A stretch of DNA of 64,000 bases. It comes from Candidatus Falkowbacteria bacterium (lineage in GTDB: Bacteria; Patescibacteriota; Patescibacteriia; CAIXNZ01). Every line of letters begins with the position of its first letter. The stretch's first letter is position 1. The position numbers were made by a program, and so were the translations under genes. This document shows, in pieces, positions 19,927 through 52,384 of this stretch. Below the pieces are notes generated by a model, which was not told the DNA's origin, ran no database searches, and was given only the letters and a program-made list of their open reading frames with translations. The stretch covers positions 192,771 through 256,770 of the forward strand of contig CAVZGV010000003.1 in assembly GCA_963774955.1 (NCBI GenBank), in the 5' to 3' direction.

Positions 19927-20400
19927 ATGGAAAATCCCCAGGGTTTTAAAAAGGAAATAAACGAGAAAGAAGGTGAGATAAAATTCACCATTAATACCAG
20001 GATTTATTCTTTAGCCGCTATTTATCAGGCAGCTTACTTTTTTTTAGATAAAGTTTATGTCTTTTTGGATGGTGATCCGAAAAAGGAAATTAAGGTTATG
20101 ATGAAAGTGAAAAGTGGGGAAGAAGGGTTGGTCAAAATTGCAGGGGAATTTTATAATGAACTTTTAAATCAGCTCTTGCGGGAAAAAGTCAGCTCAAGCA
20201 ATGCTAAAATCAGGGAGTATATTGTTTCTCAGGCGCTTTATAATGCCGTACCTAACGAGGTGGATGAATTATTAAAAGAGGTAGAAGAGGAAGATTGGCA
20301 GGAAGATCCTTTGGGGATAAGCAAGCCCTGGGAGGAAAAGAATGAGGAGGGAAAAAAGGGGAAGAAGGGTAAGGCGAGAAAGAAGGGAGGATCCAAGTAA
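19927..20400 (+). CDS. HxsD-like protein (His-Xaa-Ser system component)
   Basis: Contains FYNELLNQLLRE, close to the LLNDYxLRE signature that names the HxsD family. Lies adjacent to the HxsA-like peptide and radical SAM genes. Confidence 0.5.
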   Translation: MENPQGFKKEINEKEGEIKFTINTRIYSLAAIYQAAYFFLDKVYVFLDGDPKKEIKVMMKVKSGEEGLVKIAGEFYNELLNQLLREKVSSSNAKIREYIVSQALYNAVPNEVDELLKEVEEEDWQEDPLGISKPWEEKNEEGKKGKKGKARKKGGSK

Positions 20401-20401
20401 T

Positions 20402-20611
20402 ATGGAAATTATTAAGTTTAATAAGGATATTTACAATTTAAAAGCCATTGAAAAAGCCATTGAAGAATATAAAAAAATGGCTAATTTTACCGTAAAAGAG
20501 GTAGATGATTATTTTGAGGTCAGTCTTGATAAAATTGATCAGGAATTTCAGGGGGTAATTAAAAATGAGTTTGCTAATTATGTATCTGGGATTAATGAGC
20601 TAAAAGTATAA
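20402..20611 (+). CDS. Small protein (69 aa) resembling the N-terminal part of the preceding HxsD-like protein
   Basis: Good RBS (agaagggagga). Shares the pattern I-x-F-x-I...IY-x-L-x-AI with the upstream paralog. Confidence 0.4.
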   Translation: MEIIKFNKDIYNLKAIEKAIEEYKKMANFTVKEVDDYFEVSLDKIDQEFQGVIKNEFANYVSGINELKV

Positions 20612-20685
20612 GCACCAAATATCAAAAATCAAGTTCCAAGTAAATAACAATAAACAAATAACAAAGCAGAAACAAAAATAAAAAT

Positions 20686-21033
20686 ATGGAGAAAATTTAT
20701 GATTTAGAAGATCGCACCTTAAAGTTCGGCAAAGATATTATTCATTTATGCAAGGCTTTGCCAGAAAATACAATAAATTTCCGTTTGATTGATCAGCTTA
20801 TTCGTTCAGGCACTTCATCCGGAGTGAATTATCGTGAAGCGAACGAAACCGAGACTAAGAAGGATTTTAGGTTTAAGATCAGGATTTGTCTGCGGGAAGC
20901 TAGGGAAACTAAATATTGGCTGGAACTGCTGCAAGAGGCCAATTCTGAATTACAAGAAAAGATTGAATTTTTAATAATGGAAACCAAGGAATTAATTAAA
21001 ATATTCGCTACTATCCTGAGCAAAGCAAAATAG
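20686..21033 (+). CDS. Four-helix-bundle protein (the family found in 23S rRNA intervening sequences)
   Basis: IHLCKALPENTINFRLIDQLIRSGTSSGVNYREANETETKKDFRFKIRICLREARETKYWLELL matches the conserved core of that family. Confidence 0.75.
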   Translation: MEKIYDLEDRTLKFGKDIIHLCKALPENTINFRLIDQLIRSGTSSGVNYREANETETKKDFRFKIRICLREARETKYWLELLQEANSELQEKIEFLIMETKELIKIFATILSKAK

Positions 21034-21132
21034 TTTAAGTTTTAAATATATTGTAATTTATAATTTTTTTGAAGCTTGTAATTTGAGTCTTGGGATTTTT
21101 ATCAAAACATAATCAATAAAAATTAAGATAGC

Positions 21133-22635
21133 ATGTTGGATCTACAAACAATCAATAAATTTGACGATAAAAGCGTAGGTTATTTTCGCTTTAAGAAATT
21201 TGACGCTGATAATTATTTGCTGACCAATGAAGTGGGCCAGTATATTTTTCTTAAAGAAAAAGACTTTAAAGATTTTATTACCGGCCAGCTGAGTCCCAAG
21301 GCTAATGTTTATAAAGAGTTAAGGGCTAATTTGTTTATTAAGGATGAAGCGTATACCCCGACTCTAATTGAAAAATACCGGGCCAGAAACAGTTTTTTGA
21401 AATTTGGTCCGTCTTTGCATATTATAGTGGTAACTTTGCGCTGTAATCACAGCTGTATTTACTGCCATGCCAGCGCCGGCAACCAAACTGATAAGAGCCT
21501 AGATATGGATTTAGCTATGGCTAAAAAAATAGTTGATGTTATTTTCAAATCAACCAATAATGCGATTGCTATTGAGTTCCAGGGCGGAGAGCCGTTATTA
21601 AATTGGCCGGTGGTTAAATTTATTGTTCAATACGCCAATGAGAAAAATAAGCTGGAACAAAAGGATTTGCTCATCCGTTTAGTCTCAAATTTTAGCCTGT
21701 TGGATGAAGCTAAAATGAAGTTTTTTATTGATAACAAAGTTCATTTCTGCACGTCTTTGGACGGGGACGAGGAAACCCATAATTTTAACCGTAAGTATAG
21801 CTGTGGCAACAGTTTTGCTGAAGCCTCAAAGTGGATAAAAAGGATTAAGGCAGCATATGTAGGCAAATTTAAAGGCAAGAAAAAGGATTATTATAATGTT
21901 GGTGCGCTCATCACCATTACCAGAAAAACCCTAGGTAATTATAAAAAGGTGATTGACGCATATCTGGATTTGGGGATCCGTTCTATTTATTTAAGGTATT
22001 TGAATCCTTATGGTTTTGCCATGTCAGCCCAGGAAAATATCTGGTACACGCCTGAAGAATTTCTGGATTTTTATCAAAAGACATTAGATTACATTTTAGC
22101 CAAAAATAAAGAGGGAAAACTGTTTCTTGAAGCTACCGCTGTTACCTACTTAAGAAAAATTTTACTGCAGGAAGAACCTCATAACTTGGACATGCGTTCG
22201 CCCTGCGGAGCCGGTATTGGCCAAATGGCTTATAATTACAACGGTGATGTTTATACCTGTGATGAGGGCAGAATGATTTCGCGCATGGGCGATGAGATGT
22301 TTAAATTGGGGAATATCAATGAAAATTCTTTTGAGCAGCTGATCAATAATAATCTCTGCAAATCAATCTGTTTGGCTTCCTGCACAACCGGGTTACCCGG
22401 CCACAGTGATCAGGTTTATCAGCCATATTGGGGCACTTGTCCGGTGTATAATTATTCGCTTTACGGCAATATTTTCCCGCAGATGAAAAATAATTTCAAA
22501 TGGCAGATTGACGAGAAAATATTGGATTATATTTTCGTTAAATTACAGGATAAGAAAAACAGGGATATTTTTATGGAATGGGCCAAAAGGGCCAAGCCCC
22601 CGGTTGAGAGTAAATTTACAAAAAATAACGTTTAA
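21133..22635 (+). CDS. Radical SAM/SPASM peptide-maturase, HxsB/HxsC-like (500 aa)
   Basis: CNHSCIYC (CX3CX2C) after an about 100-aa N-terminal extension. GGEPLL. C-terminal Cys-rich SPASM-like region (SPCGAGIGQMAYNYNGDVYTCDEG...CKSICLASC). Confidence 0.7.
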   Translation: MLDLQTINKFDDKSVGYFRFKKFDADNYLLTNEVGQYIFLKEKDFKDFITGQLSPKANVYKELRANLFIKDEAYTPTLIEKYRARNSFLKFGPSLHIIVVTLRCNHSCIYCHASAGNQTDKSLDMDLAMAKKIVDVIFKSTNNAIAIEFQGGEPLLNWPVVKFIVQYANEKNKLEQKDLLIRLVSNFSLLDEAKMKFFIDNKVHFCTSLDGDEETHNFNRKYSCGNSFAEASKWIKRIKAAYVGKFKGKKKDYYNVGALITITRKTLGNYKKVIDAYLDLGIRSIYLRYLNPYGFAMSAQENIWYTPEEFLDFYQKTLDYILAKNKEGKLFLEATAVTYLRKILLQEEPHNLDMRSPCGAGIGQMAYNYNGDVYTCDEGRMISRMGDEMFKLGNINENSFEQLINNNLCKSICLASCTTGLPGHSDQVYQPYWGTCPVYNYSLYGNIFPQMKNNFKWQIDEKILDYIFVKLQDKKNRDIFMEWAKRAKPPVESKFTKNNV

Positions 22636-22649
22636 GGTATAATTAAGGC

Positions 22650-22785
22650 AACCCGCAAATATACAAATACGTTCACAAATAGTACAAATTGGAATAAACC
22701 CGCAAATATACAAATCCATTCACAAATTATACAAATTGGATGAAGATATTTGTGAGATTTGTACTAAGCTTTGTGTGTTTGTGGG
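22650..22785. repeat. About 136-bp palindromic repeat element, copy A (upstream of the GxxExxY gene)
   Basis: Two direct sub-repeats aacccgcaaatatacaaat..ttcacaaat..tacaaattgga, followed by an inverted copy tttgtgagatttgtactaag.tttgtgt.tttgtggg. About 85% identical to the copy at 23184-23320. Confidence 0.8.
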
Positions 22786-22797
22786 CGTATATAAAGT

Positions 22798-23184
22798 ATG
22801 GAAGACAAGGTTATTTATAAAGAGTTAAGCTATAAAATTGTCGGTATTTTATTTGATGTTTATAACGATCTTGGCTATGGGTATAAGGAGAAATATTATG
22901 AGAATGCGATTGAGCGTGAGTTGAGACTGGCAAGGCTCGGATATAAAAAACAAGTTCCCTTTAAATTGGTTTATAAAGAAGAAGTTATAGGCAAATTATT
23001 CGTTGATTTTATAATTGATGATAAGATTGTGCTGGAAATCAAAAAGGGCGATTATTTTAATAAGAGAAATATTGAGCAGGTAAAAGAATATTTAAAAATC
23101 AGCGGTAAAAAATTGGCAATATTGGCTAATTTTACATCTACCGGGGTGAAGTTTTTAAGGGTATTTAATTCCGATTACAAATAA
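22798..23184 (+). CDS. GxxExxY protein (PD-(D/E)XK-like selfish-element family), 128 aa
   Basis: GYGYKEKYYENAIE contains the G-x-x-E-x-x-Y signature. Bracketed by two copies of a palindromic repeat. Confidence 0.65.
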   Translation: MEDKVIYKELSYKIVGILFDVYNDLGYGYKEKYYENAIERELRLARLGYKKQVPFKLVYKEEVIGKLFVDFIIDDKIVLEIKKGDYFNKRNIEQVKEYLKISGKKLAILANFTSTGVKFLRVFNSDYK

Positions 23185-23320
23185 ACCCGTAAATTTACAA
23201 ATCATTTCACAAATAGTACAAATTGAAATATACCCGCAAATTTACAAATTAATTCACAAATCATACAAATTGGATGAAGATATTTGTGAGATTTGTACTA
23301 AGATTTGTGTTTTTTGTGGG
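23184..23320. repeat. About 136-bp palindromic repeat element, copy B (downstream of the GxxExxY gene)
   Basis: Same architecture as copy A. Supplies a spurious ATG that gives track ORF 23274 a 36-aa artefactual N-terminus. Confidence 0.8.
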
Positions 23321-23381
23321 AACCAGCTGCCGGGCAAGCCAAACGTTTTTAAATACACCTTACCAAATAATCAATAAAACA

Positions 23382-23768
23382 ATGAAGAATAGACTGCCAC
23401 AATTAAAGAAAAAATTCCAGGAATTCCTTAATGATGAAGAAGGTAAGATCACCAAAAAGGACATTATTATGCTGGGAATCGGCGTAACTGCTTTGGGTAT
23501 TTTGGCGGAAGAGGCAACTGCTGCTACTCCGGCATGCGGAAGCGGATATACTGCGGCAGGACCGACGGCAGTCGGTCATAATCGTCAGAATCAACTTATT
23601 GCTGGAGGGGCTAGTCATTTTGGGCATAATAATTTTATTCACAATGAAGGAACCCAGGGATCGCATTGTTCACATGGTTCTCATGGTTCACACGGGTCGC
23701 ATGGCAGTCACGGGTCACATGGCAGTCATGGGTCACATGGTCATCATAGTAGTGGCAACTCATGTTAA
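23382..23768 (+). CDS. HxsA-like precursor: N-terminal charged region, one TM helix, C-terminal (His-Gly-Ser)n tail
   Basis: C-terminus is GSHCSHGSHGSHGSHGSHGSHGSHGHHSSGNSC. Start set at ATG 23382, downstream of the repeat element. The DNA encoding the HGS repeats uses varied codons. Confidence 0.7.
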   Translation: MKNRLPQLKKKFQEFLNDEEGKITKKDIIMLGIGVTALGILAEEATAATPACGSGYTAAGPTAVGHNRQNQLIAGGASHFGHNNFIHNEGTQGSHCSHGSHGSHGSHGSHGSHGSHGSHGHHSSGNSC

Positions 23769-23778: not shown

Positions 23779-24642
23779 ATGAATAATAGAATTTTTTTAA
23801 TTTTAATTGCAGTCATTGTCCTCCTATTCATTGGGGTAGGTGTTTTTTGGTTTTTGTATCAAGAACGAACTCCTTTACAGCCTAATTCAAATAAAACTGT
23901 TAATCAAAATATAAATGTAAATACTGACTATTGTTTAGCAAAAATAAAGGCCAATGAAGAGGACGCTTTTTCTATTTCTCGCAGGGAGTTTTATTCGGTT
24001 TTAAATTTTTATACTTTTTGTAAATATAATAATGATAAACAAAATATTATAGATAAATGTAAGAATTATTTCGGGGAGAGAAGAAGTAATTATTGTACGG
24101 ATAAATTCCCTTATTTAGTTATGCTTTATTATCTGAAGCTGGGACAAAAGATTGAATTTGTAAAAACATGCCAAGATTACACTTCGTTATCTCAAAATAA
24201 AAAAAATATAAGTTGTGATGAAATTTGGAATAAGGCCAATGATGCTAATTTAGAATTTTGTGATCAGGTGGATCGTTCCTGCGCCTACTTGGTTACCGAT
24301 TCTGAAAAAACATCATGTGCAAAAATTGTTAATTTGAGCACCCCAGTTGATAATATTCTAGATAATGATTGCCGCAATGAGATACAAATAAGAGCTGCCA
24401 CTTCTGCTCAAGATTGTTTGAGTATAAAGGATGATATTACCAAATTAATATGTTTGAGTGTTTATAGCAAAGACGCCTGTGACAGCGCCTTTGGTTTAAT
24501 AGACGAAAAGTGTCAAATTTTAGAGACAGGTAATTTGAAAAAATTTGAGGATAAATATTCATTAAATAACTGTTGTTATGAAAATGATCCTCAGCAAGGC
24601 GGGGAGGATGTCGGAGCCGTTTTATATGTCCAATTACAATAA
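23779..24642 (+). CDS. Membrane-anchored Cys-rich protein (287 aa, about 22 Cys)
   Basis: N-terminal TM anchor ILILIAVIVLLFIGVGVFWFL, then an extracytoplasmic domain with regularly spaced cysteines. Confidence 0.5.
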   Translation: MNNRIFLILIAVIVLLFIGVGVFWFLYQERTPLQPNSNKTVNQNINVNTDYCLAKIKANEEDAFSISRREFYSVLNFYTFCKYNNDKQNIIDKCKNYFGERRSNYCTDKFPYLVMLYYLKLGQKIEFVKTCQDYTSLSQNKKNISCDEIWNKANDANLEFCDQVDRSCAYLVTDSEKTSCAKIVNLSTPVDNILDNDCRNEIQIRAATSAQDCLSIKDDITKLICLSVYSKDACDSAFGLIDEKCQILETGNLKKFEDKYSLNNCCYENDPQQGGEDVGAVLYVQLQ

Positions 24643-24732
24643 GGGTGTTGATTATGCGGAAATAAAATAAATTTTTATTAGTCTGTTAATTATCAATCAC
24701 TATGGGGGTTCTAATAAATAGAATATGGAAGT

Positions 24733-25814
24733 ATGATGAAAGAAATTACTTTATATATTTCTTTAAATTCTAAATGCAATTTAGCTTGCCGATATTGCTA
24801 TATAAAAAAAAACCTTAAGGAACAATTAAATATTAGAAAGATTAAACAAAGAATAAGTTATTTTTTTAATAAAAATAACTTTTTGTTTATTAATTTTTGC
24901 GGTGGGGAACCATTAATGTCCTTTACGACAGTTAAAGAAACTTGTAACCTATATAGAAAGGGAGCAGAGAGCGTATGGATTTGGATGTGAATTAAGTATT
25001 ATAACCAATGGAACATTATTAGACGAAGAAAAAGTCTCTTATCTATTAAGCCATGACATTAAAATAATACTTAGTCTGGACGGTATTACGGCATCCTCAG
25101 ATATAAATAGGAAGTTTTTACATTCGAATAAGTCGGTTTCAGGTGAAATAATTAGCAGGCTGGAAAAATTAAATAAAAAAATCGGTTTTCTCCAAAATTC
25201 AAGATTTCAAAGGTTGTTTCACCGAATAATTTGAGGTATCTAAAAAGTGATTTGCTGTATTTTCAGGAATTGGGTATTACTGAATTGAGTTTAGGGATTG
25301 AAAGTTATCGACAATGGTCTGACTCAAGTATTAGATTATTTTGTGAAAAGATAGAGGAACTTTTTACGATTTATTTTGATTTATTAGAAAAACAAAAGGG
25401 AAAATATTTTTAAAGATTAATAATCTTGAACGCTTGATACATAATGAATTTCATTACTATTTTGATTGTGACCAAATTCGCTTAGATTGCGATGGTTCGC
25501 TTTTTTTATGTTTAAGTCATGTTTTCGATAAAAAATTTATGCGGCAGCAGCCCTTGAATCAGTCAGCAGATCTTTCTAAGGCCAAAATGTCATTATTAAA
25601 GAATAAATTACGTCAGCTGATTAATTTTGACGTTAATCTTAAAGAAAAATTGTTTTGTCCCGTCGATTTATTAGTATATTGTCAAATAAAGAAAATTGAT
25701 TTCGTAAGATGTATAAGATGTATGCCAGTTTACATCGATGTTTACGTCGATCAATGTCGGGCTGTATTTAAGGTGTTAAGTAAGAAGAAAAGATTTCGGA
25801 GTTGTATAATTTAA
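24733..25814 (+). pseudogene. Decayed radical SAM/SPASM gene (anSME-like), at least 3 frameshifts
   Basis: CNLACRYC plus GGEPL in frame 1. ITNGTLLDEE...LSLDG in a second frame. KISKVVSPNNLRYLKSDLLYFQELGITELSLG in a third. Cys-containing C-terminal fragment in a fourth. Confidence 0.75.
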
Positions 25815-25836
25815 ATTAAAATTTGGTATTAAATAA

Positions 25837-26923
25837 ATGTCTGATAAAGTTAATTTAATTTATAACGGGGGATATGGTTATCTTTTGGAAAAAGACGGCC
25901 AATTTCTGCCAATGGGTATTTTTCAGTTAATGTCCTATTTGAAGACAATGGGAATTGATCCTCTGTCAAGATTTTAAGCAAAGATCTATTGGCAGATGCT
26001 CACAGCAAAGATGTTATTTATAATTTTTTTGTTGAGAATAATGTCCGCAATTTGGAAAATTGGCAGAATAAACATATCGATAAAAACATCTTGAAAATTG
26101 GTAATCGACCAGTTATCACCAGTAAATGACAGTGCAAAATTTTGGGGCTTCAGTATCAGCTGTCTCGATGATGTTTTGCCAACTCTTTATGCTGTTTTGG
26201 CATTAAAAACTTTAGATAAGACAGCGGTAGTTATCATCGGCGGTGCTTACCTGAAATATTTAAATAAAGAGCTAATTATAGACAACCCAAATTTGATTGA
26301 TTTTTTAGTTGTTGGTGATGGTGAATATGCTCTGACTGAAATATTAATTAACAATGGGGATAAGGATAAATTGATCGCTACTGATAATTTGGTTTTTTAT
26401 AAAGATGGAAAATTGATAATTAATCCCGTTAAATATATTAATTTTAATGACATTAAATTGCCGGATTACGAGATCGTAAAGGCAGATGAAGAGATCTATT
26501 ATAATTTTTCCAGGGGTTGCGGCGGCCAGTGCATGTTTTGCACGTCGAAAGATAAGTTGCAGTTTAAAAATTATACTACAATTTGTAGCGAACTGGATCT
26601 CTTTAATTTCTAAATATAATCCGAGCAGGATTTATTTTATTGATTGCAGTGCCAATAACAACGCCCAGTTATTTATTAAAATTTTGGAATATTTACACGG
26701 GCGAACGGGAGATTTTGAGGCAATATTTTGGGTTGATTTTTTCAATTTTCCGGATAGTTTAATCCAGGCAATTAATGATTATACCACGGATAAAAAAATA
26801 AACTTAAAGTTCGGTCTAGAAAGCGGTGATAAAAAAATGCGTGATTTTTTGAATAAACCACGATTTACTAATGATGCAGCAATTGATATTGTGAAGAAAC
26901 TTAAGAACAGGTTAATAATTTAA
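25837..26923 (+). pseudogene. Decayed B12-binding-domain radical SAM gene (multiple frameshifts and stops)
   Basis: Cobalamin-binding-like VVIIGGAYLKYL...DFLVVGDGE. RGCGGQCMFC (CX3CX2C). Continues in another frame (SRIYFIDC...KFGLESG). The N-terminal part is also broken. Confidence 0.7.
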
Positions 26924-27300
26924 AAATAAATCTTAAATATTATTGTCAGTATTCCCTATGAAGATAAATTTAGTTTCTTAAAAACCTTAAAATTAATTTT
27001 ATATTTGAAGGATTATTGTTACCGGGTACCCATTACGATTTTTCATCTGACTCCTGAGAGTGCACTGTTCTGAAGAATCCAGATAAGTATAAGATTAGGT
27101 TACGTGACCGTTCAGTAAATAAATATAATTACTTTTTTTGTTACGATGAAATTGACGGCTTTAAAATGGGAGGATATTGAGCGAAGAAATTATAAGTATT
27201 TTGAGCATATTGTTTCTTATTTGAATAAGGCTAAAATTAGTTGGTGAAAATATATGGATGATATTTTAAATGTTCACTTTAAAGCGTCTATTGGAATTTA

Positions 27301-28030
27301 TTGATATTAAGAAATTTACAGCTTAAGGATTTTTTTATCGGAGCAGAAATGACGTTGGTTAAGCTTTCAGACAATAGTTTGGGGACAGCTGCGAATTTCG
27401 ATGTTCAAATCGATACCGATAAACATTTAAAGTTTTCTGCTATAAGGGAGAGTGATCATATTAGGAAATTAATAAACAAAGATCCTTTATTATTAAAATA
27501 TTTGCAGAATCTTGACTGCAGTTTTAAACGGTCATTAAAATTAGCCATAGTTTCAGCGTTGTCTCAGCCTTTATTGAATAAAAGTGAATTAAGGAGACTT
27601 GGTCTTGAATTTTTTTAGAGTTAAAAAGAGCAGTTCATGGCAACATAGACTTGTCCCGTTACTTAAAGATAAAAACGAAGCTGTTTTAATAGGTTATGGC
27701 GGGGGCTTACATACATTATTAAAGTCAAAGATTTTAAATTTGTATATTTCTGATTTTATGTTTAAAAATAGGGTGTTTTTAATGCAGTCAATTCGAGAAT
27801 TGGCTAGACTCAAGAAATTGTATAATTTTATGGGAAAGATTAAATTATCAAATGGTTTACAGAATGAAGCGATTCTAAAGAAGGCCAATCTTACCTTAAT
27901 TAGCGGTTCTGCCCTAGCTATTAATACGATGGAAGATTTGCTTAAAAATGCTCGAAGATGTGCTAAACGGTCATTGTCCAGGGGCCTAGTGCCAGTATCT
28001 ACCCAGCCGAATTATTTTCCAGAGGAGTAA
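27301..28030 (+). CDS. Hypothetical protein split into two overlapping ORFs at a T7 homopolymer (27301-27618 and 27599-28030)
   Basis: The frame change coincides with gaattttttt at about 27608-27617. No family recognised with confidence. Confidence 0.35.
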
Positions 28031-28137
28031 CTGATTTATTCACTAATATAAAGAAAGAAGCCGATATATTTGATTATAAAATTCCTGGCGGCCATACTAG
28101 GGATGATAGCAATTATATCCATATTTATAAATAATTT

Positions 28138-28997
28138 ATGCATTATTCATTAGATTTAAATTACAATTGCAATAATGATTGCCTTTTCTGTTTTAATAAA
28201 TATGATAAAAACAAGTCGTTTGATATTAAGCAGGTAAAAAAAGAAATTGATTGGGCGTCTAAAAATCAGTTTGATATTCTCGATTTTTATGGCGGGGAAC
28301 CGCTATTATATAAAGATGATTTGTTGGAAATTCTAAAGTATGCACATGCAATAAAGGGTTGAAATCCGGAATCGCTACAAATGCCACTTTTTTAGATGAT
28401 AAAATTGTTAAAATTTTCAATGAATTAGGGGTGGTTAATTGTAGAACAAGTATGCACGGCCATAATAAGGTATTGCATGACATGGTGACTCAAAGGAAAG
28501 GTAGCTTTGAAAAGACCTCTCGAGGAATTAATTCTTTGATTAACTATTTTAACGGGGAGATAATTATAAATATAGTCATTACCAAATTAAATTATAAATA
28601 TCTACCAGACATTGTTCTACATATATGTAAACTTGATCCTGGTAAGAAGGCGGCTATTAAGTTTTCCAATTTGATTTATAATCATAATAATGATGTTTAT
28701 AGAAAGATTGGCCTGTCTTTATCAGCCACCCAGCCGGTTGTGTATAAAGTAATCAAAAATATAGTTAAAGATAGAAAGTTTTATATTGAGAAATATCCTT
28801 ATTGTTTTTTAAAACCATTCTCTAAAAATTTTATAATAGAAAAAGATCTTGGCAGGGAAATTATATTTTGGCATAATGATTGCGCTGTCTGCAAATTCAA
28901 GAATAAGTCTTGTGTCGGATTAAATATCAATTATGTCAATTATATCCAGCCAGATATAGGTGAAATTAAAAAATTGAATAATTTTAAATATGAATAA
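28138..28997 (+). CDS. Short twitch/SPASM-type radical SAM enzyme, paralog 1, interrupted by a -1 frameshift at about 28355-28362
   Basis: CNNDCLFC, GGEPLL, TNATFLDD, NIVITKLNYKYL and a C-terminal CAVCKFKNKSCVG cluster. The break lies in an aaaggg run (ORFs 28138-28362 and 28359-28997). Confidence 0.65.
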
Positions 28998-30378
28998 GCT
29001 GAGAAAGTTATTAGGTCGCGAGCAGATCTCGAATGAAAAAAAACAATATATTAAGATAAACAATTACTGTAATAATAATTGTATTTTTTGCCTTGATTCT
29101 GCCAATCAGGAAAAGGCTCAGCGGATCAAAAAAACTTTCATATTTAAACAAATCAAAGATGGAAGGGCCGGGGGGGCTAATAAATTAATACTAAGCGGCG
29201 GCGAAGCTACAATTGATCCCTACTTCCTTGAATATGTTAAATTTGCCAAAACGAACGGTTATCATAAAATACAGGTTATTTCCAATGGCCGGATGTTTGC
29301 GTACGGTAAATTTGCTAAGCAGGCAATAGCGAATGGTTTGAATGAGATAACGATATCAATTCATGGGCATAATCAGAAGTTGTACGAAAAATTGACTAAT
29401 ATACCCGGATCATTTAAACAATTGTTAGCGGCATTAAATAATTTAAAACAATTTCCCGGGTTGATAATAAATATTGATATAGTGATCAATAAATTAAATT
29501 ATAAATATATTTATGAGATTATTAAATTTTATAGTAAAAATTGTGGTATTTTTGAATATGATTTACTTAATTTAACACCTGCCGGCCGCGCTTTAATTAA
29601 TAAAAAGATATTATTTATTAATTTGAAACTAGCTTTGAAGTATTTAAAGCCTGTTTTTAATCTGACGAAAAGGGATAGTCGGTTTTTTATATGGACTAAT
29701 AGGTTGCCTCCTAAATATTTAGAAGGGTATGAGTATTTAATCCAAGACCCTCATAAATTAATGGATGAGGTTTCGGGCCGTTATCAATCATTAAACAGTT
29801 TTTTGACCTTAGGGACTAAAATGAGTTGTCAGGATGATCTAAACTGCTCTTGGTGTTATTTGGATGATTTCTGTAAAAAGCTCAGGGACACTAAACAACT
29901 AAATAATTTTGAGTTTTTCCCCATAAAATCCATTAATGATGTTAGAAATGTTAGTGAACGCAAGTATTTTGTTGAGGTTGACAGGAAGAATTACAAGGAC
30001 ATCTTAGAAAATATTGAAGAATATAAAAAATATAATGTTTATTTTAAATTAAGAAATTTTAGCACTGTAAAAGAACTTGACCAGAAGGCTTTGCCTCTAA
30101 GTTTATTCAAAGAATATTTTGCGATGGATAAAGATATTAAATTTTTAGACTTTCCATTATGTTTGGTTAATAAACAGGCAAAAGTAGCGCAATTTTTGAA
30201 TTTGTCAAGAAATGCCGCTGATTTAGATTTAAAGCAATTTACCATGAATTATATAAGGGATTTATATTATATAAAAGCTTTAAAATGCGATCATTGTAGA
30301 TTTAATAAAAAATGTTCTGGCTGGCATATTAATTATGTGCGCTATTACGGGTTTAAAATTTTTAACCCAGTCATATGA
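28990..30378 (+). CDS. Radical SAM enzyme, paralog 2, with an about 170-aa C-terminal extension (462 aa)
   Basis: CNNNCIFC, SGGEATIDP, ISNGRMF, IDIVINKLNYKYIYEI. Terminal CDHCRFNKKCSGWH. Start overlaps the upstream stop (ATGAATAA). Confidence 0.75.
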   Translation: MNKLRKLLGREQISNEKKQYIKINNYCNNNCIFCLDSANQEKAQRIKKTFIFKQIKDGRAGGANKLILSGGEATIDPYFLEYVKFAKTNGYHKIQVISNGRMFAYGKFAKQAIANGLNEITISIHGHNQKLYEKLTNIPGSFKQLLAALNNLKQFPGLIINIDIVINKLNYKYIYEIIKFYSKNCGIFEYDLLNLTPAGRALINKKILFINLKLALKYLKPVFNLTKRDSRFFIWTNRLPPKYLEGYEYLIQDPHKLMDEVSGRYQSLNSFLTLGTKMSCQDDLNCSWCYLDDFCKKLRDTKQLNNFEFFPIKSINDVRNVSERKYFVEVDRKNYKDILENIEEYKKYNVYFKLRNFSTVKELDQKALPLSLFKEYFAMDKDIKFLDFPLCLVNKQAKVAQFLNLSRNAADLDLKQFTMNYIRDLYYIKALKCDHCRFNKKCSGWHINYVRYYGFKIFNPVI

Positions 30379-31736
30379 GTAAAATTGATTTTAATCAGCG
30401 GTTAAAATTTTTTAGAGATATTACTTATCGGTATAATTTAATATTCCCGACCGATTATTTATATCTTTCACCTAAAAAGGAATGGGGATTAGAGCAGATG
30501 ATGAATTTATGGCGATTTAATTTGAGAAATGTTAATAACCCATATGTTTCGCTTTATTTACATATCCCTTTTTGTCTCGAAAGAAGGTGCTCTTATTGTA
30601 TAAATTTATCTTCGGTATTGGAGTCCGGCTCCCAGCTCGAGCAATATTTGGATTATCTGAAAAAAACGATGTTAAACTATAGGAAAATATTTCCGACTAC
30701 AAAATTCAATACATTATATATAGGCGGAGGTACCCCCTCGATATTATCGCCAAAACAGTTGGATGATTTTTTAAAAACCATTAAGATTAATTTTAAATTT
30801 GAAAGTTCTGGCATGAAAACTATCGAGATGTCACCTGCTACTGCAAGTTATGAAAAAATAGATATTTGTAAAAGGCAAGGTATTAATCGCATAAGTATGG
30901 GGATTCAATCTTTGAACTGCAAGATTCTAGAATCAGTTAATAGATTCAATACTTTAGCCTATAATGAGTTACAGGATCTTTGTCGGTATGTTAATAGGAA
31001 GAAATTTGAAGATTTTAATTTGGATTTAATAATTGGCTTGCCTGGCGAAAATAATAAAAGTTTTTTAAATAACCTGACGCAATTATTAAAGTTAAATATT
31101 CCATCAATTACTGTTTATAAATATGTACATAAATATTTTGAGTCCGAAAAAAATACGCCAAAGTATTACGAAGAGCAATATTTAATCAAGTATAAAGATA
31201 TTATTAAAAATATAGGAGCTATATTGAAAAAGTATCATTATATTGAAGAAACGTCCGGGGCTGGAATTAATAATCTATTTCGTTTCGTAAAGAAAAACCA
31301 TAGCAAAAAACAGGATTATTTTTTGCAATGGAACTCACAATTAAATAATTCTGTTTTAGGTATCGGGAAAGGCTCTACCAGTCTTATACAAAATAAAGTC
31401 TTTGCCAATGAAGATTTTAACGTATCAGTAAATAACCTAGTATCAAGCAATGTTAAATATTCAGGTCACATATTTAATAAAGATGACCAAATTCGCAATT
31501 ATACAATTATGGAACTCTGGCGTAATCGGGCAATGGATTTTTCAGAATTCAAGAGGTTATTCGGGCTAGATTTTTACAGCTACTTTAAGGGGGAGCTAGA
31601 CTATTTGAGAATTCAAAATAAAGTAATAATTACCGATAAATACGTAGAGATTAAATTTAATGATATTTTGGATTTTGCAATTAATATAAAATTATTTTTT
31701 AATTTTTCTTATCTTAAAACTAACTATCAAACATAA
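30375..31736 (+). CDS. HemN/HemW-like radical SAM enzyme with a non-canonical CX4CX2C motif, paralog A (453 aa)
   Basis: LHIPFCLERRCSYC, LYIGGGTPS, INRISMGIQS, DLIIGLPGE. ATGA overlap with the upstream gene. Confidence 0.75.
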   Translation: MSKIDFNQRLKFFRDITYRYNLIFPTDYLYLSPKKEWGLEQMMNLWRFNLRNVNNPYVSLYLHIPFCLERRCSYCINLSSVLESGSQLEQYLDYLKKTMLNYRKIFPTTKFNTLYIGGGTPSILSPKQLDDFLKTIKINFKFESSGMKTIEMSPATASYEKIDICKRQGINRISMGIQSLNCKILESVNRFNTLAYNELQDLCRYVNRKKFEDFNLDLIIGLPGENNKSFLNNLTQLLKLNIPSITVYKYVHKYFESEKNTPKYYEEQYLIKYKDIIKNIGAILKKYHYIEETSGAGINNLFRFVKKNHSKKQDYFLQWNSQLNNSVLGIGKGSTSLIQNKVFANEDFNVSVNNLVSSNVKYSGHIFNKDDQIRNYTIMELWRNRAMDFSEFKRLFGLDFYSYFKGELDYLRIQNKVIITDKYVEIKFNDILDFAINIKLFFNFSYLKTNYQT

Positions 31737-31738
31737 TT

Positions 31739-32674
31739 ATGGCGAATTTGGGTTACATCCAATTGAATAGAACCTGTAATCAGCAGTGCCTGTTTTGCTC
31801 CAATCCGGAGAATGGGAACGTTTTATCATATTCAAAAGCTAGGTTTTATATTGATGATTTTATGAAAAACCGAGTTGACGGAATTATTTTTACCGGGGGT
31901 GAACCAACCTTAAACAAAAATTTAATAAGGCTTATAAGGTATTGTAAACAAAAAAACTTAGAATCCAGGATAATAACAAATGGACAACTTACTGCTGATT
32001 ACGATTTTATGCGAGAATTGAAGTTGTCTGGATTGAATTTGATTCATGTTTCCATCCATTCAGTAAAACCCCCAATACAAAATTATTTGAGCCAAAATTC
32101 TAATTCTTTTAGGAATATAATAGGAACTTTGCAAAACGCCAGAAAGCTCGGTGTGGAGGTTAATATTAATACTGTTATAAACAGATTTAATGCCAAAAAT
32201 TTGCATGAAAATATGCGTTTTTTTATCGTTAAATTCCCTGAAATTAAGCACTTTGTTTTTAATAATTTAGATCCTAAGATGAATCGGGTTGAGAAAAATA
32301 CCACTTTAATCCCTCGATTAGGGGATTTTAAAGATTCATTGTTGAAAGCTCTGACATTATTAAGCAAGAATGGAAAGACTTTCCGCGTTGAACGCGTCCC
32401 TTTATGTTATATGACGGAATTCGCAGAGTATTCAACTGAAACCAGGAAGATTATTAAGAATGAGGAACGTAGGATCTTATTTTTGGATGATCGACCTGAT
32501 AATTATAGTAAACAAGATTATTTCTTTTATGAAAAAGCAAAACAATGTAAAAAATGCAGCCTGAATGAAATATGTGCCGGATTATACGCTATGGATACAC
32601 ATTTTAGTAGTAAAGAATTGGAGCCCCAAGCAATTAATAAGAATATAATTATTAAAAGGATATTAAATGGCTAA
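31739..32674 (+). CDS. Short twitch/SPASM-type radical SAM enzyme, paralog 3 (311 aa)
   Basis: CNQQCLFC, FTGGEPTL, ITNGQL, NTVINRFNAKNL, C-terminal CKKCSLNEICAG. Confidence 0.8.
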   Translation: MANLGYIQLNRTCNQQCLFCSNPENGNVLSYSKARFYIDDFMKNRVDGIIFTGGEPTLNKNLIRLIRYCKQKNLESRIITNGQLTADYDFMRELKLSGLNLIHVSIHSVKPPIQNYLSQNSNSFRNIIGTLQNARKLGVEVNINTVINRFNAKNLHENMRFFIVKFPEIKHFVFNNLDPKMNRVEKNTTLIPRLGDFKDSLLKALTLLSKNGKTFRVERVPLCYMTEFAEYSTETRKIIKNEERRILFLDDRPDNYSKQDYFFYEKAKQCKKCSLNEICAGLYAMDTHFSSKELEPQAINKNIIIKRILNG

Positions 32675-33548
32675 AAGGATTGAAATATATGTAGGTTTTA
32701 AATGCAATAATAATTGTATTTTTTGCGTTGAATACTTTAGACGACAGAAGTTTAATGACTTGAAAGTATTACAAACTAATACTGAAATCAATGAACAGCT
32801 AAATAAATATCGTGAAGAAGGATATAGCCATTTAAATATATTGGGTGGAGAACCTTTCTTGGAGCCAAGTTTTTATAAAGTATTATCAAAAGCTAAGGGC
32901 TTAGGCTTCATTACCGCAGTTACAACTAATGGAAGTTTATTGTCAGATGAAAATATTGCCGTTAAAAATTTACCCTTAATAGATGATCTAATCTTATCTA
33001 TTCATGGTCATAATGAAGAAATAATCTCGAGACAGAGTCAGAATAAAAATTTATATGTCAATTTACAGGCAGCTTTTTTAAATATTAAAAAATATTTTAG
33101 AGGTCGAATTCTTAAAACCAATACTGTAATTAATAATTTAAATTATAAATATCTCTTAGATATTGTAAAATTTATTCAGAGGGCGGGAATCTCAGAAATT
33201 AGTTTAACCTATATGTCGATTGATGATCATAATAAAGAATTCTTGGTAAGTTTGGGTAGACTGCAGCCATATTTGGAAAAAGTAATGGAATATTGCAGCA
33301 ATAATGACTTGAGAATCAGGTTCGCTGATATTCCTTTATGTTTTTTGGGACAATACCCCCATCTAGATAATAGTTTATATTATGACAAACGACAGAAATA
33401 TGATGTGGATGGTAAGCTGATCGAACATTGTAGGCAAAAAACAAAAACAGAAAAATGTTCCGGCTGTATGTATGAAGGTATTTGCGAAGGGTTGGATCTT
33501 AGTTATTATAAAATATTCGGCGATTCAGAATTAATGCCAATTAGTTAA
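32667..33548 (+). CDS. Short twitch/SPASM-type radical SAM enzyme, paralog 4 (293 aa)
   Basis: CNNNCIFC, LGGEPFL, TTNGSLL, NTVINNLNYKYLLDIV, C-terminal CSGCMYEGICEG. Confidence 0.8.
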   Translation: MAKRIEIYVGFKCNNNCIFCVEYFRRQKFNDLKVLQTNTEINEQLNKYREEGYSHLNILGGEPFLEPSFYKVLSKAKGLGFITAVTTNGSLLSDENIAVKNLPLIDDLILSIHGHNEEIISRQSQNKNLYVNLQAAFLNIKKYFRGRILKTNTVINNLNYKYLLDIVKFIQRAGISEISLTYMSIDDHNKEFLVSLGRLQPYLEKVMEYCSNNDLRIRFADIPLCFLGQYPHLDNSLYYDKRQKYDVDGKLIEHCRQKTKTEKCSGCMYEGICEGLDLSYYKIFGDSELMPIS

Positions 33549-49390: not shown

Positions 49391-51106
49391 ATGAGTTTAG
49401 CATTATATCGAAAATATAGGCCGCAGAGGTGGGAGGAGCTGACCGGTCAGAATCATATTAAAATAACTTTGCAGCATGAAATTGAAGCAGGGAAGGTTAG
49501 TCATGCTTATCTTTTTACTGGTCCTCGGGGTATCGGTAAGACTACAACGGCACGTTTATTAGCCAAGTCTGTAAATTGTGAAAATCGTCAAGAGGGAATA
49601 AGCGAACCCTGCAATAAATGTGATGCTTGTTTAGAGTTAACCGCCGGTAATGACTTGGATATATTGGAGATTGATGCAGCCACTCATACTCAGGTAGATA
49701 ATGTACGTGAAAATATTATCGCCAATGCGCGCTTTACGCCGGTCAAAAGAAAATTTAAGGTTTTTATCATTGATGAAGTCCACATGCTGTCAATTTCGGC
49801 CTTTAACGCTTTGCTGAAGATTTTGGAAGAACCGCCGGCTCATGCTATTTTTATTTTGGCTACGACTGAAATTCATAAAGTCCCGGCTACGATAATTTCC
49901 CGCTGCCAGCGTTTTGATTTTAAAAAAGTTAATGCTGATGATCTTTTAAAACGCTTGTCTTGGATGTGCCAGCAGGAAGGGATAAAAGTAAGCAAAGATG
50001 TATTAATTGAAGTTAGTCGCCATAGCGAGGGTTCTTTGCGTGACGCTGAAAGTTTATTGGGTCAGCTTTTAGCTTTGGGTGAAAAGGAAATTACCGCAGA
50101 AGAAGCCAGTTTGGTTTTGCCTCATTCCAATTATAATTTGGTTTTAGAGCTGGTTAATGAATTAGTGGCTAAAAATATTGAAACCAGCCTTACCTTGGTT
50201 AATAAATTGGCGGATGAAGGCATTGATTTGGTTAAATTTTCTGAAGATTTGGTGGAATTTTTGCGGAAAATAATGTTAAGCAAAATATCAGGGGGCTTAA
50301 AGTCTTTCTCTTTTGATTTGGACGATGTCATGGAAAAGGCCATTTTAGAATTAAGTAAGAAATTTGAGATTAATGACCTTTTGCGCTTGATAAATCTGTT
50401 TATAAATAAAAAATCAGAGATAAAATCAGCGGTTATTCCGCAATTGCCGCTGGAAATTGCCATAATTGAATATTGCCAGAAAGAGGAACAAGCAGGGCCA
50501 GGCGGGAAAGACGGAAAGGACGGTGGGGCAGGTTCCTCCGGAGGAGATGGCGGGGGCGGTAAATCATTTGAGACAAAGAAGGTGCCCTCCTTCGCTCCCG
50601 GCGAAGCGGCGGAGGATAAAGTGAATAAAAGTCAAGAAAGTGGCATAAGTAATGCCACTTTAAAAAATGAAAATTCTATAGCCAGCCTTAAAAATATTAA
50701 GAAAATTGAAACAACTCTTGACGAAATTAAATCCAAATGGCATAATTTTTTAGTAAAGCTTCAGGATTCCAATGCATCCTTGGTTTTTATATTAAAAGTG
50801 GCAGAGCCTTTGGAGTTGAATGATAATGTATTAAAAATCGGGTTTAAGTATGCTTTTCATCAGCAAAGAGTTAAGCAGAAAAAGATTTCAGACGCGATTG
50901 AAAGTTTTTTGCTGAATTTTTTTGGAGAAGAAATTTATATTGAAACATGTTTGTTGTCTAAAGATCATGAAAGTGAAATAATCAAACAGGAAACTAAAAA
51001 TGACGAAGTGGAAATGCTAGAGGAATTACCGCCAAACCAAGCTCTTGACCAGCAGACACTTATTGATACCTTGGTTAAAACTTTTAACGGTAAGGTTGTT
51101 GAATAA
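49391..51106 (+). CDS. dnaX: DNA polymerase III subunit gamma/tau
   Basis: HAYLFTGPRGIGKTTTARLLAKSVNCEN (Walker A plus zinc module CNKCDAC), FIIDEVHML, SRCQRF. Confidence 0.9.
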   Translation: MSLALYRKYRPQRWEELTGQNHIKITLQHEIEAGKVSHAYLFTGPRGIGKTTTARLLAKSVNCENRQEGISEPCNKCDACLELTAGNDLDILEIDAATHTQVDNVRENIIANARFTPVKRKFKVFIIDEVHMLSISAFNALLKILEEPPAHAIFILATTEIHKVPATIISRCQRFDFKKVNADDLLKRLSWMCQQEGIKVSKDVLIEVSRHSEGSLRDAESLLGQLLALGEKEITAEEASLVLPHSNYNLVLELVNELVAKNIETSLTLVNKLADEGIDLVKFSEDLVEFLRKIMLSKISGGLKSFSFDLDDVMEKAILELSKKFEINDLLRLINLFINKKSEIKSAVIPQLPLEIAIIEYCQKEEQAGPGGKDGKDGGAGSSGGDGGGGKSFETKKVPSFAPGEAAEDKVNKSQESGISNATLKNENSIASLKNIKKIETTLDEIKSKWHNFLVKLQDSNASLVFILKVAEPLELNDNVLKIGFKYAFHQQRVKQKKISDAIESFLLNFFGEEIYIETCLLSKDHESEIIKQETKNDEVEMLEELPPNQALDQQTLIDTLVKTFNGKVVE

Positions 51107-51120
51107 TTTGTAGGCAAAAC

Positions 51121-51175
51121 TCGGGGATCGTCTAATGGTAGGACAACAGGTTCTGGACCTGTTTATCGGGGTTCG
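51121..51175 (+). pseudogene. Truncated tRNA-Gln 5' fragment (positions 1-57, broken in the T-loop after TTCG), copy 1
   Basis: Identical to the 5' part of the intact tRNA at 52303. Followed by ccacgtcatccgacgtgg and ccctgtcgaatgacaggg hairpins instead of the T-arm 3' strand. Confidence 0.75.
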
Positions 51176-51234
51176 CCACGTCATCCGACGTGGCGCCCTG
51201 TCGAATGACAGGGCGAATCCTCTCACTTTAAATT

Positions 51235-51507
51235 ATGTATTATTTATATATCCTTTTATTAAATAACAAGCAGTTATATACTGGCTATACCAATGATTTA
51301 AAACGGAGAATAAAGGAGCATCAATTGGGCAAGGTTGATTTTACCAGCCAAAGATTACCAGTTAAGTTAATACATTATGAGGCTTATTTATTGAAGGAAG
51401 ATGCAGTAAGGCGAGAGAAGTATTTGAAAACTACGGAAGGAAAAAGGTTTTTAAAGCAACAAATAAGGGATCTTTTAATTAAAGAGGGAGTTATTGAAGA
51501 TTTGTAG
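51235..51507 (+). CDS. GIY-YIG nuclease-family small protein (90 aa), copy 1
   Basis: MYYLYILLLNNKQLYTGYTNDLKRRIKEH matches the GIY-YIG motif (Y-x-Y-I-L...Y-x-G...DL-x-RR-x-x-EH). Confidence 0.75.
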   Translation: MYYLYILLLNNKQLYTGYTNDLKRRIKEHQLGKVDFTSQRLPVKLIHYEAYLLKEDAVRREKYLKTTEGKRFLKQQIRDLLIKEGVIEDL

Positions 51508-51514
51508 GCAATGT

Positions 51515-51569
51515 TCGGGGATCGTCTAATGGTAGGACAACAGGTTCTGGACCTGTTTATCGGGGTTCG
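51515..51569 (+). pseudogene. Truncated tRNA-Gln 5' fragment, copy 2
   Basis: As copy 1, offset by 394 bp. Confidence 0.75.
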
Positions 51570-51628
51570 CCACGTCATCCGACGTGGCGCCCTGTCGAAT
51601 GACAGGGCGAATCCTCTCACTTTAAATT

Positions 51629-51901
51629 ATGTATTATTTATATATCCTTTTATTAAATAACAAGCAGTTATATACTGGCTATACCAATGATTTAAAACGG
51701 AGAATAAAGGAGCATCAATTGGGCAAGGTTGATTTTACCAGCCAAAGATTACCAGTTAAGTTAATACATTATGAGGCTTATTTATTGAAGGAAGATGCAG
51801 TAAGGCGAGAGAAGTATTTGAAAACTACGGAAGGGAAAAGGTTTTTAAAGCAACAAATAAGGGATCTTTTAATTAAAGAGGGAGTTATTAAAAATTTGTA
51901 G
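51629..51901 (+). CDS. GIY-YIG nuclease-family small protein, copy 2
   Basis: Identical to copy 3. Differs from copy 1 only at the C-terminus. Confidence 0.75.
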   Translation: MYYLYILLLNNKQLYTGYTNDLKRRIKEHQLGKVDFTSQRLPVKLIHYEAYLLKEDAVRREKYLKTTEGKRFLKQQIRDLLIKEGVIKNL

Positions 51902-51908
51902 GCAATGT

Positions 51909-51963
51909 TCGGGGATCGTCTAATGGTAGGACAACAGGTTCTGGACCTGTTTATCGGGGTTCG
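51909..51963 (+). pseudogene. Truncated tRNA-Gln 5' fragment, copy 3
   Basis: As copy 1, offset by 788 bp. Confidence 0.75.
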
Positions 51964-52022
51964 CCACGTCATCCGACGTGGCGCCCTGTCGAATGACAGG
52001 GCGAATCCTCTCACTTTAAATT

Positions 52023-52295
52023 ATGTATTATTTATATATCCTTTTATTAAATAACAAGCAGTTATATACTGGCTATACCAATGATTTAAAACGGAGAATA
52101 AAGGAGCATCAATTGGGCAAGGTTGATTTTACCAGCCAAAGATTACCAGTTAAGTTAATACATTATGAGGCTTATTTATTGAAGGAAGATGCAGTAAGGC
52201 GAGAGAAGTATTTGAAAACTACGGAAGGGAAAAGGTTTTTAAAGCAACAAATAAGGGATCTTTTAATTAAAGAGGGAGTTATTAAAAATTTGTAG
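52023..52295 (+). CDS. GIY-YIG nuclease-family small protein, copy 3
   Basis: As above. Confidence 0.75.
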   Translation: MYYLYILLLNNKQLYTGYTNDLKRRIKEHQLGKVDFTSQRLPVKLIHYEAYLLKEDAVRREKYLKTTEGKRFLKQQIRDLLIKEGVIKNL

Positions 52296-52302
52296 GCAAT
52301 GT

Positions 52303-52373: not shown

Positions 52374-52384
52374 CTTTGTCTATA

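Follow-up and report, generated by a model that had tools for sequence, protein, structure and literature searches.

A GxxExxY nuclease gene bracketed by ACAAAT arrays between hxsB and hxsA in a Falkowbacteria genome: probably an old, compact selfish cassette resembling ribosomal RNA intervening sequences

The function of the open reading frames (ORFs) carried by intervening sequences (IVSs) of bacterial rRNA genes has been a question since the 1990s, and proteins of the GxxExxY family are reported among the passengers of such IVSs. The IVS of the Coxiella burnetii 23S rRNA is 428 nt long, has a stem of 28 bp, carries an S23p ORF and is cut by RNase III (PMC4990558). A survey of rRNA insertions in the candidate phyla radiation (CPR) mentions only the 23S_rRNA_IVP family (PMC11270868), and the function of the family PF13366 is listed as unknown (PMC3424549). 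Intergenic arrays of directly repeated heptamers have been described in cyanobacteria, Beggiatoaceae and Bacteroidetes (PMC4679880), as have REPINs (repetitive extragenic palindromic sequence doublets forming hairpins; PMC3116915). Here, a 64,000-nt stretch of a Candidatus Falkowbacteria genome (contig CAVZGV010000003.1, positions 192,771 to 256,770 of the forward strand; hereafter the window) is found to carry a GxxExxY gene bracketed by two repeat copies, inserted between hxsB, a radical S-adenosylmethionine (SAM) maturase gene, and a hxsA-type precursor gene. The region is probably an old, still-functional copy of a very compact, rRNA-IVS-like selfish cassette of ~0.47-0.67 kb, with the repeat arrays as its functional ends.

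The cassette, its repeat units and the host genes on either side are as follows; F denotes a forward and R an inverted unit.

21133-22635, + strand: hxsB radical SAM maturase, host gene 5' of the insertion (TIGR03978, 521.6 bits)
22615-22643, + strand: promoter-like TTTACA-17-TATAAT directly 5' of unit A1 (consensus match only)
22650-22787: repeat copy A, upstream, three units F-F-R (repeat search and alignment)
22650-22696, + strand: unit A1, forward ACAAAT-array unit of copy A (nhmmer E 4e-11)
22697-22743, + strand: unit A2, forward unit of copy A (nhmmer E 9.5e-12)
22744-22787, - strand: unit A3, inverted unit of copy A (nhmmer E 2e-8)
22798-23184, + strand: small nuclease gene of the GxxExxY / PD-(D/E)XK type, 128 aa (TIGR04256, PF13366)
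23184-23322: repeat copy B, downstream, three units F-F-R (repeat search and alignment)
23184-23230, + strand: unit B1, forward unit of copy B (nhmmer E 4e-10)
23231-23277, + strand: unit B2, forward unit of copy B (nhmmer E 1.2e-11)
23278-23322, - strand: unit B3, inverted unit of copy B (nhmmer E 3.6e-7)
23382-23768, + strand: hxsA-type His-Xaa-Ser repeat precursor, host gene 3' of the insertion (NF038313/NF038309 sub-threshold, (GSH)n)

Comparison with orthologous loci identifies the gene and its repeats as an insertion. The closest GxxExxY proteins (79-85% identical) also lie between hxsB and hxsA, and this site is occupied in the window, in a Candidatus Uhrbacteria contig (L008) and in the metagenome contigs L009/L010, L011/L012 and L030/L031. 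In a further relative, L027, whose HxsB is 74% identical to that of the window, the junction reads hxsB-TGA, a 21-nt spacer (attaagaattaaaataatttt) and ATG-hxsA, with neither the GxxExxY ORF nor the repeats. The gene and repeats thus show presence/absence polymorphism at an orthologous site. The HxsB of L027 shows its highest identity to those of L008 and L009, where the site is occupied, so the cassette was either lost once or gained more than once at this site. The insertion is not recent, since five orthologous loci share the site and synonymous positions are saturated: synonymous divergence (dS) of the GxxExxY ORF across these loci is 1.1-2.5, and 1.5-2.5 when the window is compared with its relatives, saturated like that of hxsB. 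The ratio of nonsynonymous (dN) to synonymous divergence is 0.04-0.15, indicating strong purifying selection, and dN is about half that of hxsB. An earlier note on this DNA had proposed a recent mobile insertion that splits an operon, to be compared with a relative lacking it; the empty junction of L027, with hxsB and hxsA 21 nt apart, and the recurrence of the module at five other unrelated junctions (below) bear out the mobile, selfish-type insertion, and the shared site and saturated divergence contradict its recency. A conserved hxsA leader with no associated ORF, which that note had named as what would refute its reading, is excluded.

The arrangement of units differs among the occupied orthologous loci:

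Window: (F F R) ORF (F F R)
L008: (F F R) ORF (F R)
L009: (F, degenerate R) ORF (F R)
L011: (F) ORF (partial F, R)
L030: (F) ORF (partial F, R)

The two window copies are 89% identical to each other and 72-86% identical to the orthologous elements, while the corresponding value for the two elements either side of the ORF, upstream against downstream, is 79% in L008 and 73% in L009. As copies A and B resemble each other more than their orthologues, the ends have been partly homogenised or re-duplicated in the lineage of the window.

The same module is found at junctions that have no connection with the Hxs system:

pheS-pheT junction, L014 (Kuenenbacteria): GxxExxY gene with units
gatC-gatA junction, L015/L016: GxxExxY gene with units
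mraZ-rsmH junction, L021-L026: GxxExxY gene with units
Junction of an Lcl_C-domain gene and the Avd gene of a diversity-generating retroelement (DGR), L017-L020: GxxExxY gene with units
Junction of an excisionase-like HTH ORF and a 641-aa gene, L013: GxxExxY gene with units

The GxxExxY proteins at these five junctions are 60-70% identical to the window protein. With hxsB-hxsA included, six independent junctions carry a GxxExxY gene bracketed by units, and at every one of them the gene shares its strand with both neighbours. The family-wide signature is a forward unit just 5' of the ORF, often abutting its ATG, and an inverted unit just 3' of it; the units at the other loci match in a profile search with E 1e-5 to 1e-11. 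Those of L014 are perfect 37-nt reverse complements (37/37, CCCACAAATCTACAAATCTTGCCACAAATATACAAAT), and in L013 the outer 20 nt are identical. In L014, and also in L013, L021 and L011, the terminal inverted repeats could enclose the small ORF in a stem. Complementarity of the flanks exceeds that of shuffled sequences at L014 (z -14), L013 (-10.9), L021 (-9.4), L011 (-5.8) and the window (-6.5); in a control on 61 window genes, the GxxExxY flanks rank 2nd at 160 nt, 8th at 100 nt and 12th at 70 nt. Shortly before the next start codon, the inverted unit frequently terminates in GGGAG or GGAGG (L013, L017 and, before the ORF, L008). ORF and arrays move together among operons and lineages that are unrelated. 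Hairpins of the form F-loop-R are also found without a gene: after ftsZ (L002), directly 5' of the RNase P RNA gene (L005) and at L013 8405-8501, 3' of the 641-aa gene.

Two of these loci have additional features. In L005 (4445-4631), an inverted repeat of 15 nt (cctgtgctaataaag / ctttattagcacagg) surrounds the gene-free ACAAAT hairpin, and one of its arms doubles as the 5' strand of helix P1 of the RNase P RNA. In L017 (10001-12636), the GxxExxY cassette lies directly 5' of a DGR-like cluster of bAvd, a GIY-YIG gene and an opposite-strand reverse transcriptase, and its inverted unit ends in GGGGGAGGGAGGG, just 5' of the Avd start codon. In scans of genomes and metagenomes, matches to the pattern in Paludibacteraceae and other Bacteroidales (L001, L003, L004, L007) were treated as unrelated. 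They share a conserved intergenic TACAAATCGATTCACAAATCGTACAAAT / GGTACAAATCGATTCACAAATCGTACAAATT between a lipoprotein-like gene and an AraC-like gene and have the TACAAAT motif in common with the units, but they come with no GxxExxY gene and no inverted partner; the sequence GGTACAAATCGATTCACAAATCGTACAAATT is probably an unrelated regulatory site. A scan of viral contigs with CCCACAAATCTACAAATC returned only chance matches inside a coding region.

In the window, the repeat search aligns 22650-22780 with 23184-23314 at 90% identity over 131 nt, and alignments of the entire copies give 89% (123/138 identical positions); the copies described in the earlier note are therefore real, and its figure of ~85% was slightly low. 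Its account of their anatomy also holds, each copy consisting of three units of ~45-47 nt, two direct and one inverted. The 136-bp palindromic element that it recognised is present in the window and is not the unit of the family, F-F-R being a local elaboration. Both copies closely flank the ORF, as claimed: unit A3 ends in GGG, 10 nt 5' of the GxxExxY ATG, and the first base of unit B1 is the last base of the TAA stop codon. A profile of the unit finds exactly six matches in the window (E 4e-7 to 1e-11) and no further match below E = 2 in the rest of it, and pattern searches return 4-5 matches against 0.07-0.46 expected by chance. On the + strand each copy is predicted to fold into a long, interrupted hairpin, as likewise proposed before, with -42.9 kcal/mol (z -5.4) for one copy and -30.2 kcal/mol (z -3.4) for the other; folding of the minus strand is poorer. 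In the predicted transcript these are local hairpins, in which A1/A2 pair with A3 and B2 with B3. Rfam gives nothing at gathering thresholds for the window repeats, the lone chance match being to a miRNA (E 0.6). The hairpins have no U-tract. No terminator-like site is present in the region, so transcriptional read-through is plausible. The promoter-like sequence at 22615-22643 is the best consensus match of the region and is not kept in L008; the total count of such matches equals the shuffle expectation.

Across an alignment of 33 units, the 80% consensus is.CCC.CAAAT..ACAAAT......ACAAAT...ACAAAT, and that of the window units is CCCrCAAAT..ACAAAT......ACAAAT...ACAAAT. Each ~40-nt unit therefore contains four ACAAAT motifs, arranged as two ACAAATnnACAAAT pairs ~20 nt apart, with a CCC cap. 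The motif columns are at least 80% conserved across the 33 units despite saturated synonymous sites; purifying selection acts on the motif blocks as well as on the ORF. What is conserved is an array of sequence motifs, as expected for protein-binding sites, and not a co-varying helix, although the blocks can still pair.

The ORF between the copies belongs to the GxxExxY family, as had been suggested, with 100.9 bits against TIGR04256 (cutoff 35) and 100.7 bits against PF13366 (PDDEXK_3; cutoff 22). It contains the motif G28-x-x-E31-x-x-Y34 and the catalytic-type residues D70, E80 and K82, and all six residues (G28, E31, Y34, D70, E80, K82) are invariant in 47 homologues. An AlphaFold model (predicted local distance difference test score, pLDDT, 93.7) has a restriction-endonuclease-like nuclease fold, and the nearest solved structures by Foldseek are Cas4 SSO0001 (E 4e-5), lambda exonuclease, the resolvase Hjc and tRNA-splicing endonucleases, with the I-Bth0305I catalytic domain as a weak fold match. 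The protein thus has a generic, minimal PD-(D/E)XK fold, and these matches do not point to a particular substrate. Profile searches recognise no transposase in the window cassette, and its sole ORF is the PD-(D/E)XK protein. The family comprises at least 6,417 clusters at 50% identity, and some members (P0246, P0252, P0266 and others) are 250-277 aa long with two tandem GxxExxY domains.

A mechanism can be proposed for such a cassette, composed of a small PD-(D/E)XK nuclease gene with inward-facing ACAAAT arrays as terminal inverted repeats (TIRs). It would enter short spacers between co-transcribed genes, always on the host strand, and by sense-strand insertion in an operon spacer it would ride on the host operon transcript. 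The arrays may be recognition sites of the encoded nuclease, comparable to transposase-binding sites; a change of array motif with protein clade across phyla would fit such recognition. In the transcript, forward and inverted units could pair with each other or, as predicted for the window, form local hairpins. The resulting double-stranded RNA stems might, as in rRNA IVSs, be cut by RNase III or insulate the neighbouring cistrons, and such processing or insulation would make the insertion tolerable. The GGG(AG) end of the inverted unit could supply a ribosome-binding site to the next gene. In the window, each end would have been elaborated to F-F-R and the two ends partly homogenised to 89% identity, which would account for the two direct repeats.

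Several observations weigh against this interpretation. No target-site duplication is definable at any junction: none is consistent by eye at 10 junctions, and the comparison of empty and occupied loci leaves the right-hand boundary unfixed. There is no second unit locus elsewhere in the 64-kb window, so recent transposition within this genome is not shown. The predicted RNA of the window forms local hairpins and no stem enclosing the ORF. At the 18 variable columns, F and R units show no greater similarity within an element than between elements (0.31 vs 0.36), so covariation lends no support to an RNA helix, and the excess of G-U over A-C mismatches is weak (~22:10 on the sense strand, non-independent pairs included). 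Because pairing falls on invariant positions of the motif and co-variation is lacking in the variable spacers, the covariation test is uninformative to negative. One of six GxxExxY homologues from outside CPR (Persicobacter, L036) shows no flanking repeat. We know of no citable precedent for a 128-aa PD-(D/E)XK protein as the sole mobility enzyme of an element. Because the motif changes in step with the host phylum, the arrays could just as well be bound by a host factor. Lastly, an insertion as ancient as that at hxsB-hxsA could by now be domesticated.

Were it domesticated, the cassette would be a fixed host feature inside the operon, with hairpins that serve RNA processing or stability and let the hxsA precursor be expressed independently of the hxsB maturase, and a nuclease with a host function. 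The long occupation of the site at saturated dS agrees with this, as do purifying selection that is stronger on the GxxExxY ORF than on hxsB, the finding of no degenerate GxxExxY ORF among the ~12 loci examined, stable hairpins (z -5.4 and -3.4) that have no U-tract, and the maintained similarity of copies A and B. However, the identical module stands at pheS-pheT, gatC-gatA, mraZ-rsmH and other junctions, so an Hxs-specific function cannot explain the cassette; L027 works without it, and the Hxs locus of the window itself seems to be decaying downstream, with frameshifted radical SAM fragments at 24640-28400. Domestication is thus an unlikely explanation. A partnership like that of REPINs and REP-associated tyrosine transposases (RAYTs) would make the F-loop-R hairpins mobile non-autonomous elements and the GxxExxY gene a single-copy helper that disperses them and is flanked by them. 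The hairpin-ORF-hairpin layout of the window and L008 resembles that of REPIN-flanked RAYT genes, and hairpins without a gene occur at three loci. Yet such gene-free copies are rare, with 0 in the other ~63 kb of the window and one in ~90 kb of other CPR loci, the ORF itself relocates together with its repeats, and the GxxExxY protein, which has a different fold, is not a Y1/HUH transposase; we regard this partnership as quite improbable.

A free-standing homing endonuclease would cut cassette-free alleles of the same junction and be copied into them by repair, leaving the repeats as expression or insulation signals only. Insertion between conserved genes and presence/absence polymorphism at an orthologous site agree with homing, and PD-(D/E)XK homing endonucleases exist, I-Bth0305I among them with its weakly matching catalytic domain. 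Homing accounts neither for the recurrence of the same terminal arrays of ~40 nt with the ORF at six unrelated junctions nor for the gene-free hairpins, and it is highly doubtful here. The region could also be imagined as part of a DGR, with the nearby four-helix-bundle protein as Avd and copies A and B as template and variable repeats, given that Avd shares a fold family with that protein and that the L017 cassette adjoins bAvd, a GIY-YIG gene and a reverse transcriptase. A tblastn search with the L017 reverse transcriptase found none in the window, though, and the differences between copies A and B are of all types and not confined to adenines, both copies being non-coding. The DGR reading is rejected for the window on these two grounds, its probability being negligible. 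The selfish cassette with functional array ends is the reading retained here.

GxxExxY homologues beyond CPR, on plasmids or chromids, are 27-35% identical and are flanked by arrays of other motifs:

Bacteroides finegoldii (L035), junction of radA and a FAD protein gene: CACAGAGG x3, 30 nt, 90% complementary, z -10.4
Bernardetia (L034): 28 nt, 86% complementary, z -6.2
Treponema saccharophilum (L033): 16 nt, 88% complementary, z -3.9
Gemmatirosa (L037): downstream hairpin of CGCGGAT x3
Fusobacteria plasmid (L032): three direct 52-nt repeats
Persicobacter (L036): no flanking repeat evident

Genes of the four-helix-bundle family can be bracketed in a similar way. In L021 such a gene has CGATAATT x4 upstream and AATTATTG x3 downstream (z -7.3), and on cyanobacterial plasmids 3/3 four-helix-bundle genes are bracketed by inverted heptamer arrays, which comprise (GTCGGAR)n, (TAATTCG)n and a CT-rich array in Nostoc, Dolichospermum and Pseudanabaena:

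Dolichospermum (L041), 546-578/1038-1070: 33 nt, 100% complementary
Nostoc punctiforme (L040), 640-683/1158-1201: 44 nt, 86% complementary
Pseudanabaena (L042), 606-637/1041-1072: 32 nt, 78% complementary

It is possible, and proposed here tentatively, that GxxExxY, four-helix-bundle and perhaps small GIY-YIG genes are cargo of one cross-phylum class of ultra-compact mobile cassettes, each delimited by inverted, lineage-specific arrays of a short repeat, whose proteins would recognise their own arrays and use an undescribed form of insertion, excision or homing, with rRNA IVSs and many orphan heptamer arrays as special cases or remnants. The motifs of such a class may be ACAAAT in CPR, CACAGAGG in Bacteroidota, CACGGAT-type in Spirochaetota and Gemmatimonadota, and heptamers in cyanobacteria. 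The extension from the CPR cassette to a cross-phylum class is plausible but unproven.

The operon upstream of the insertion contains three further genes:

19927-20400: HxsD (profile searches)
20399-20611: HxsD-like gene (profile searches)
20686-21033, + strand: four-helix-bundle gene, 23S rRNA IVS protein family (TIGR02436, PF05635)

Profile matches for the host Hxs system (TIGR03978, 521.6 bits; TIGR03976, 63.1 bits; NF038315, 65 bits) support the operon context given in the earlier note, with HxsB and an HxsA-type precursor as neighbours and the four-helix-bundle gene upstream at 20686. The precursor is below the profile cutoff but carries (GSH)n repeats. That copy B lends hxsA a spurious ATG was likewise correct: the ATG at 23274, in unit B2, is in frame with hxsA, yet the true start is 23382, because all six HxsA homologues begin with M-x-N-[KR]-[LI]-P-x-L-K-K-K-F-Q-E-F, a conserved N-terminus that in the window falls at 23382. 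A second variable slot lies between the hxsD-like gene and hxsB (window 20612-21132), occupied by the four-helix-bundle gene in the window and by a GIY-YIG gene with a long hairpin in L030/L031 (L030 4568-5000); in L008 (4200-4361) and L027 (4850-5001) it is only a hairpin-rich spacer of 150-160 nt. The window four-helix-bundle gene is flanked by a weak inverted motif, AAATAACAA at 20641-20670 and TTGTAATTT at 21049-21085; its flanks show a 12-nt inverted repeat of 92%, with z -3.3 vs shuffles. Its flank complementarity is unexceptional among window genes, and a bracketing repeat is not claimed for it.

Beyond hxsA and a 287-aa gene, 24640-28400 consists of successive radical SAM fragments with broken frames, among them a frameshifted HxsC-like gene; the corresponding genes are intact in L008 and L027. 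Farther on, at 28359-33548, there are five radical SAM genes that are intact. It seems that the Hxs locus is decaying in this genome, unless the breaks are assembly indels. Elsewhere in the window, a 394-bp unit is present in 3.2 tandem copies of 99% identity (51105-52374). Each unit starts the tRNA-Gln(CTG) sequence but holds just its first 55 nt, together with a pair of GC-rich hairpins and a GIY-YIG ORF of 82 aa (51235-51477, 51629-51871 and 52023-52265) that is 50% identical to the GIY-YIG gene beside the DGR in L017, and the array terminates in an intact tRNA-Gln (52303-52374). The array may be a further cassette with a small nuclease, inserted where the T-loop of a tRNA gene is encoded and then triplicated; otherwise it is an artefact of assembly.

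The arrangement is not described in the literature searched (GxxExxY, PF13366, IVS proteins, CPR selfish nucleases and heptamer arrays), in which the term GxxExxY occurred in just one context, an unrelated one. Travel with terminal arrays, precise insertion between operon partners and the existence of occupied and empty alleles turn the function of GxxExxY into a testable question, namely whether the protein binds or cuts its own arrays. For CPR annotation, the cassettes matter because they split operons, create spurious starts such as that at 23274 and extend called ORFs into repeats. The bracketed cyanobacterial four-helix-bundle genes link known heptamer repeats to IVS-protein genes, and the cassette class may explain some intergenic heptamer arrays of cyanobacteria and Bacteroidota.

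Among known mobile elements, miniature inverted-repeat transposable elements (MITEs) and TIR transposons, such as the Correia elements of Neisseria, resemble the cassette in their terminal inverted repeats, intergenic operon-internal sites, co-transcription with neighbours and gene-free hairpin derivatives beside ORF-carrying copies. The cassette differs from them in that its 128-aa PD-(D/E)XK protein is not accompanied by any recognisable transposase, in that target-site duplications were not found and in its low copy number in the available sequence (one locus in 64 kb). Like REPIN-RAYT systems, it has an enzyme gene flanked by the hairpin repeats on which the enzyme supposedly acts, and repeat pairs that form hairpins; unlike them, its enzyme is from another superfamily than Y1/HUH (IS200-like), its repeats are not abundant, and the gene moves together with them. 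With free-standing homing endonucleases it shares a small nuclease gene between conserved genes that is present or absent at orthologous sites, but conserved terminal arrays, which homing does not require, follow the gene to unrelated sites. Intergenic heptamer arrays (PMC4679880) are also short tandem repeats of 6-8 nt near start codons with lineage-specific motifs, and the arrays around the cyanobacterial four-helix-bundle genes are of that same type; they were described, however, with neither a link to GxxExxY or four-helix-bundle ORFs nor inverted bracketing.

The cassette also resembles rRNA IVSs. Those with an ORF, in Coxiella burnetii (PMC4990558) and Leptospira, measure 428-444 nt, similar to the ~470 nt of simple cassettes; in both, terminal inverted repeats of ~28-40 nt can form a stem around a small ORF, and the ORF families overlap, the four-helix-bundle 'S23p' family being common to both. 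Sporadic distribution and transcription within a host RNA are further shared features. In contrast to IVSs, the window cassette lies between hxsB and hxsA and not in an rRNA helix (Rfam finds no rRNA in the 64-kb window), its ends are hexamer arrays and not a simple complementary stem, and in the window these form local hairpins in a direct-repeat arrangement. RNase III processing is known for the Coxiella IVS and is proposed for the cassette by analogy. The cassette would be an IVS-type element outside rRNA; very small selfish cassettes of this sort have hitherto been described from rRNA genes alone.

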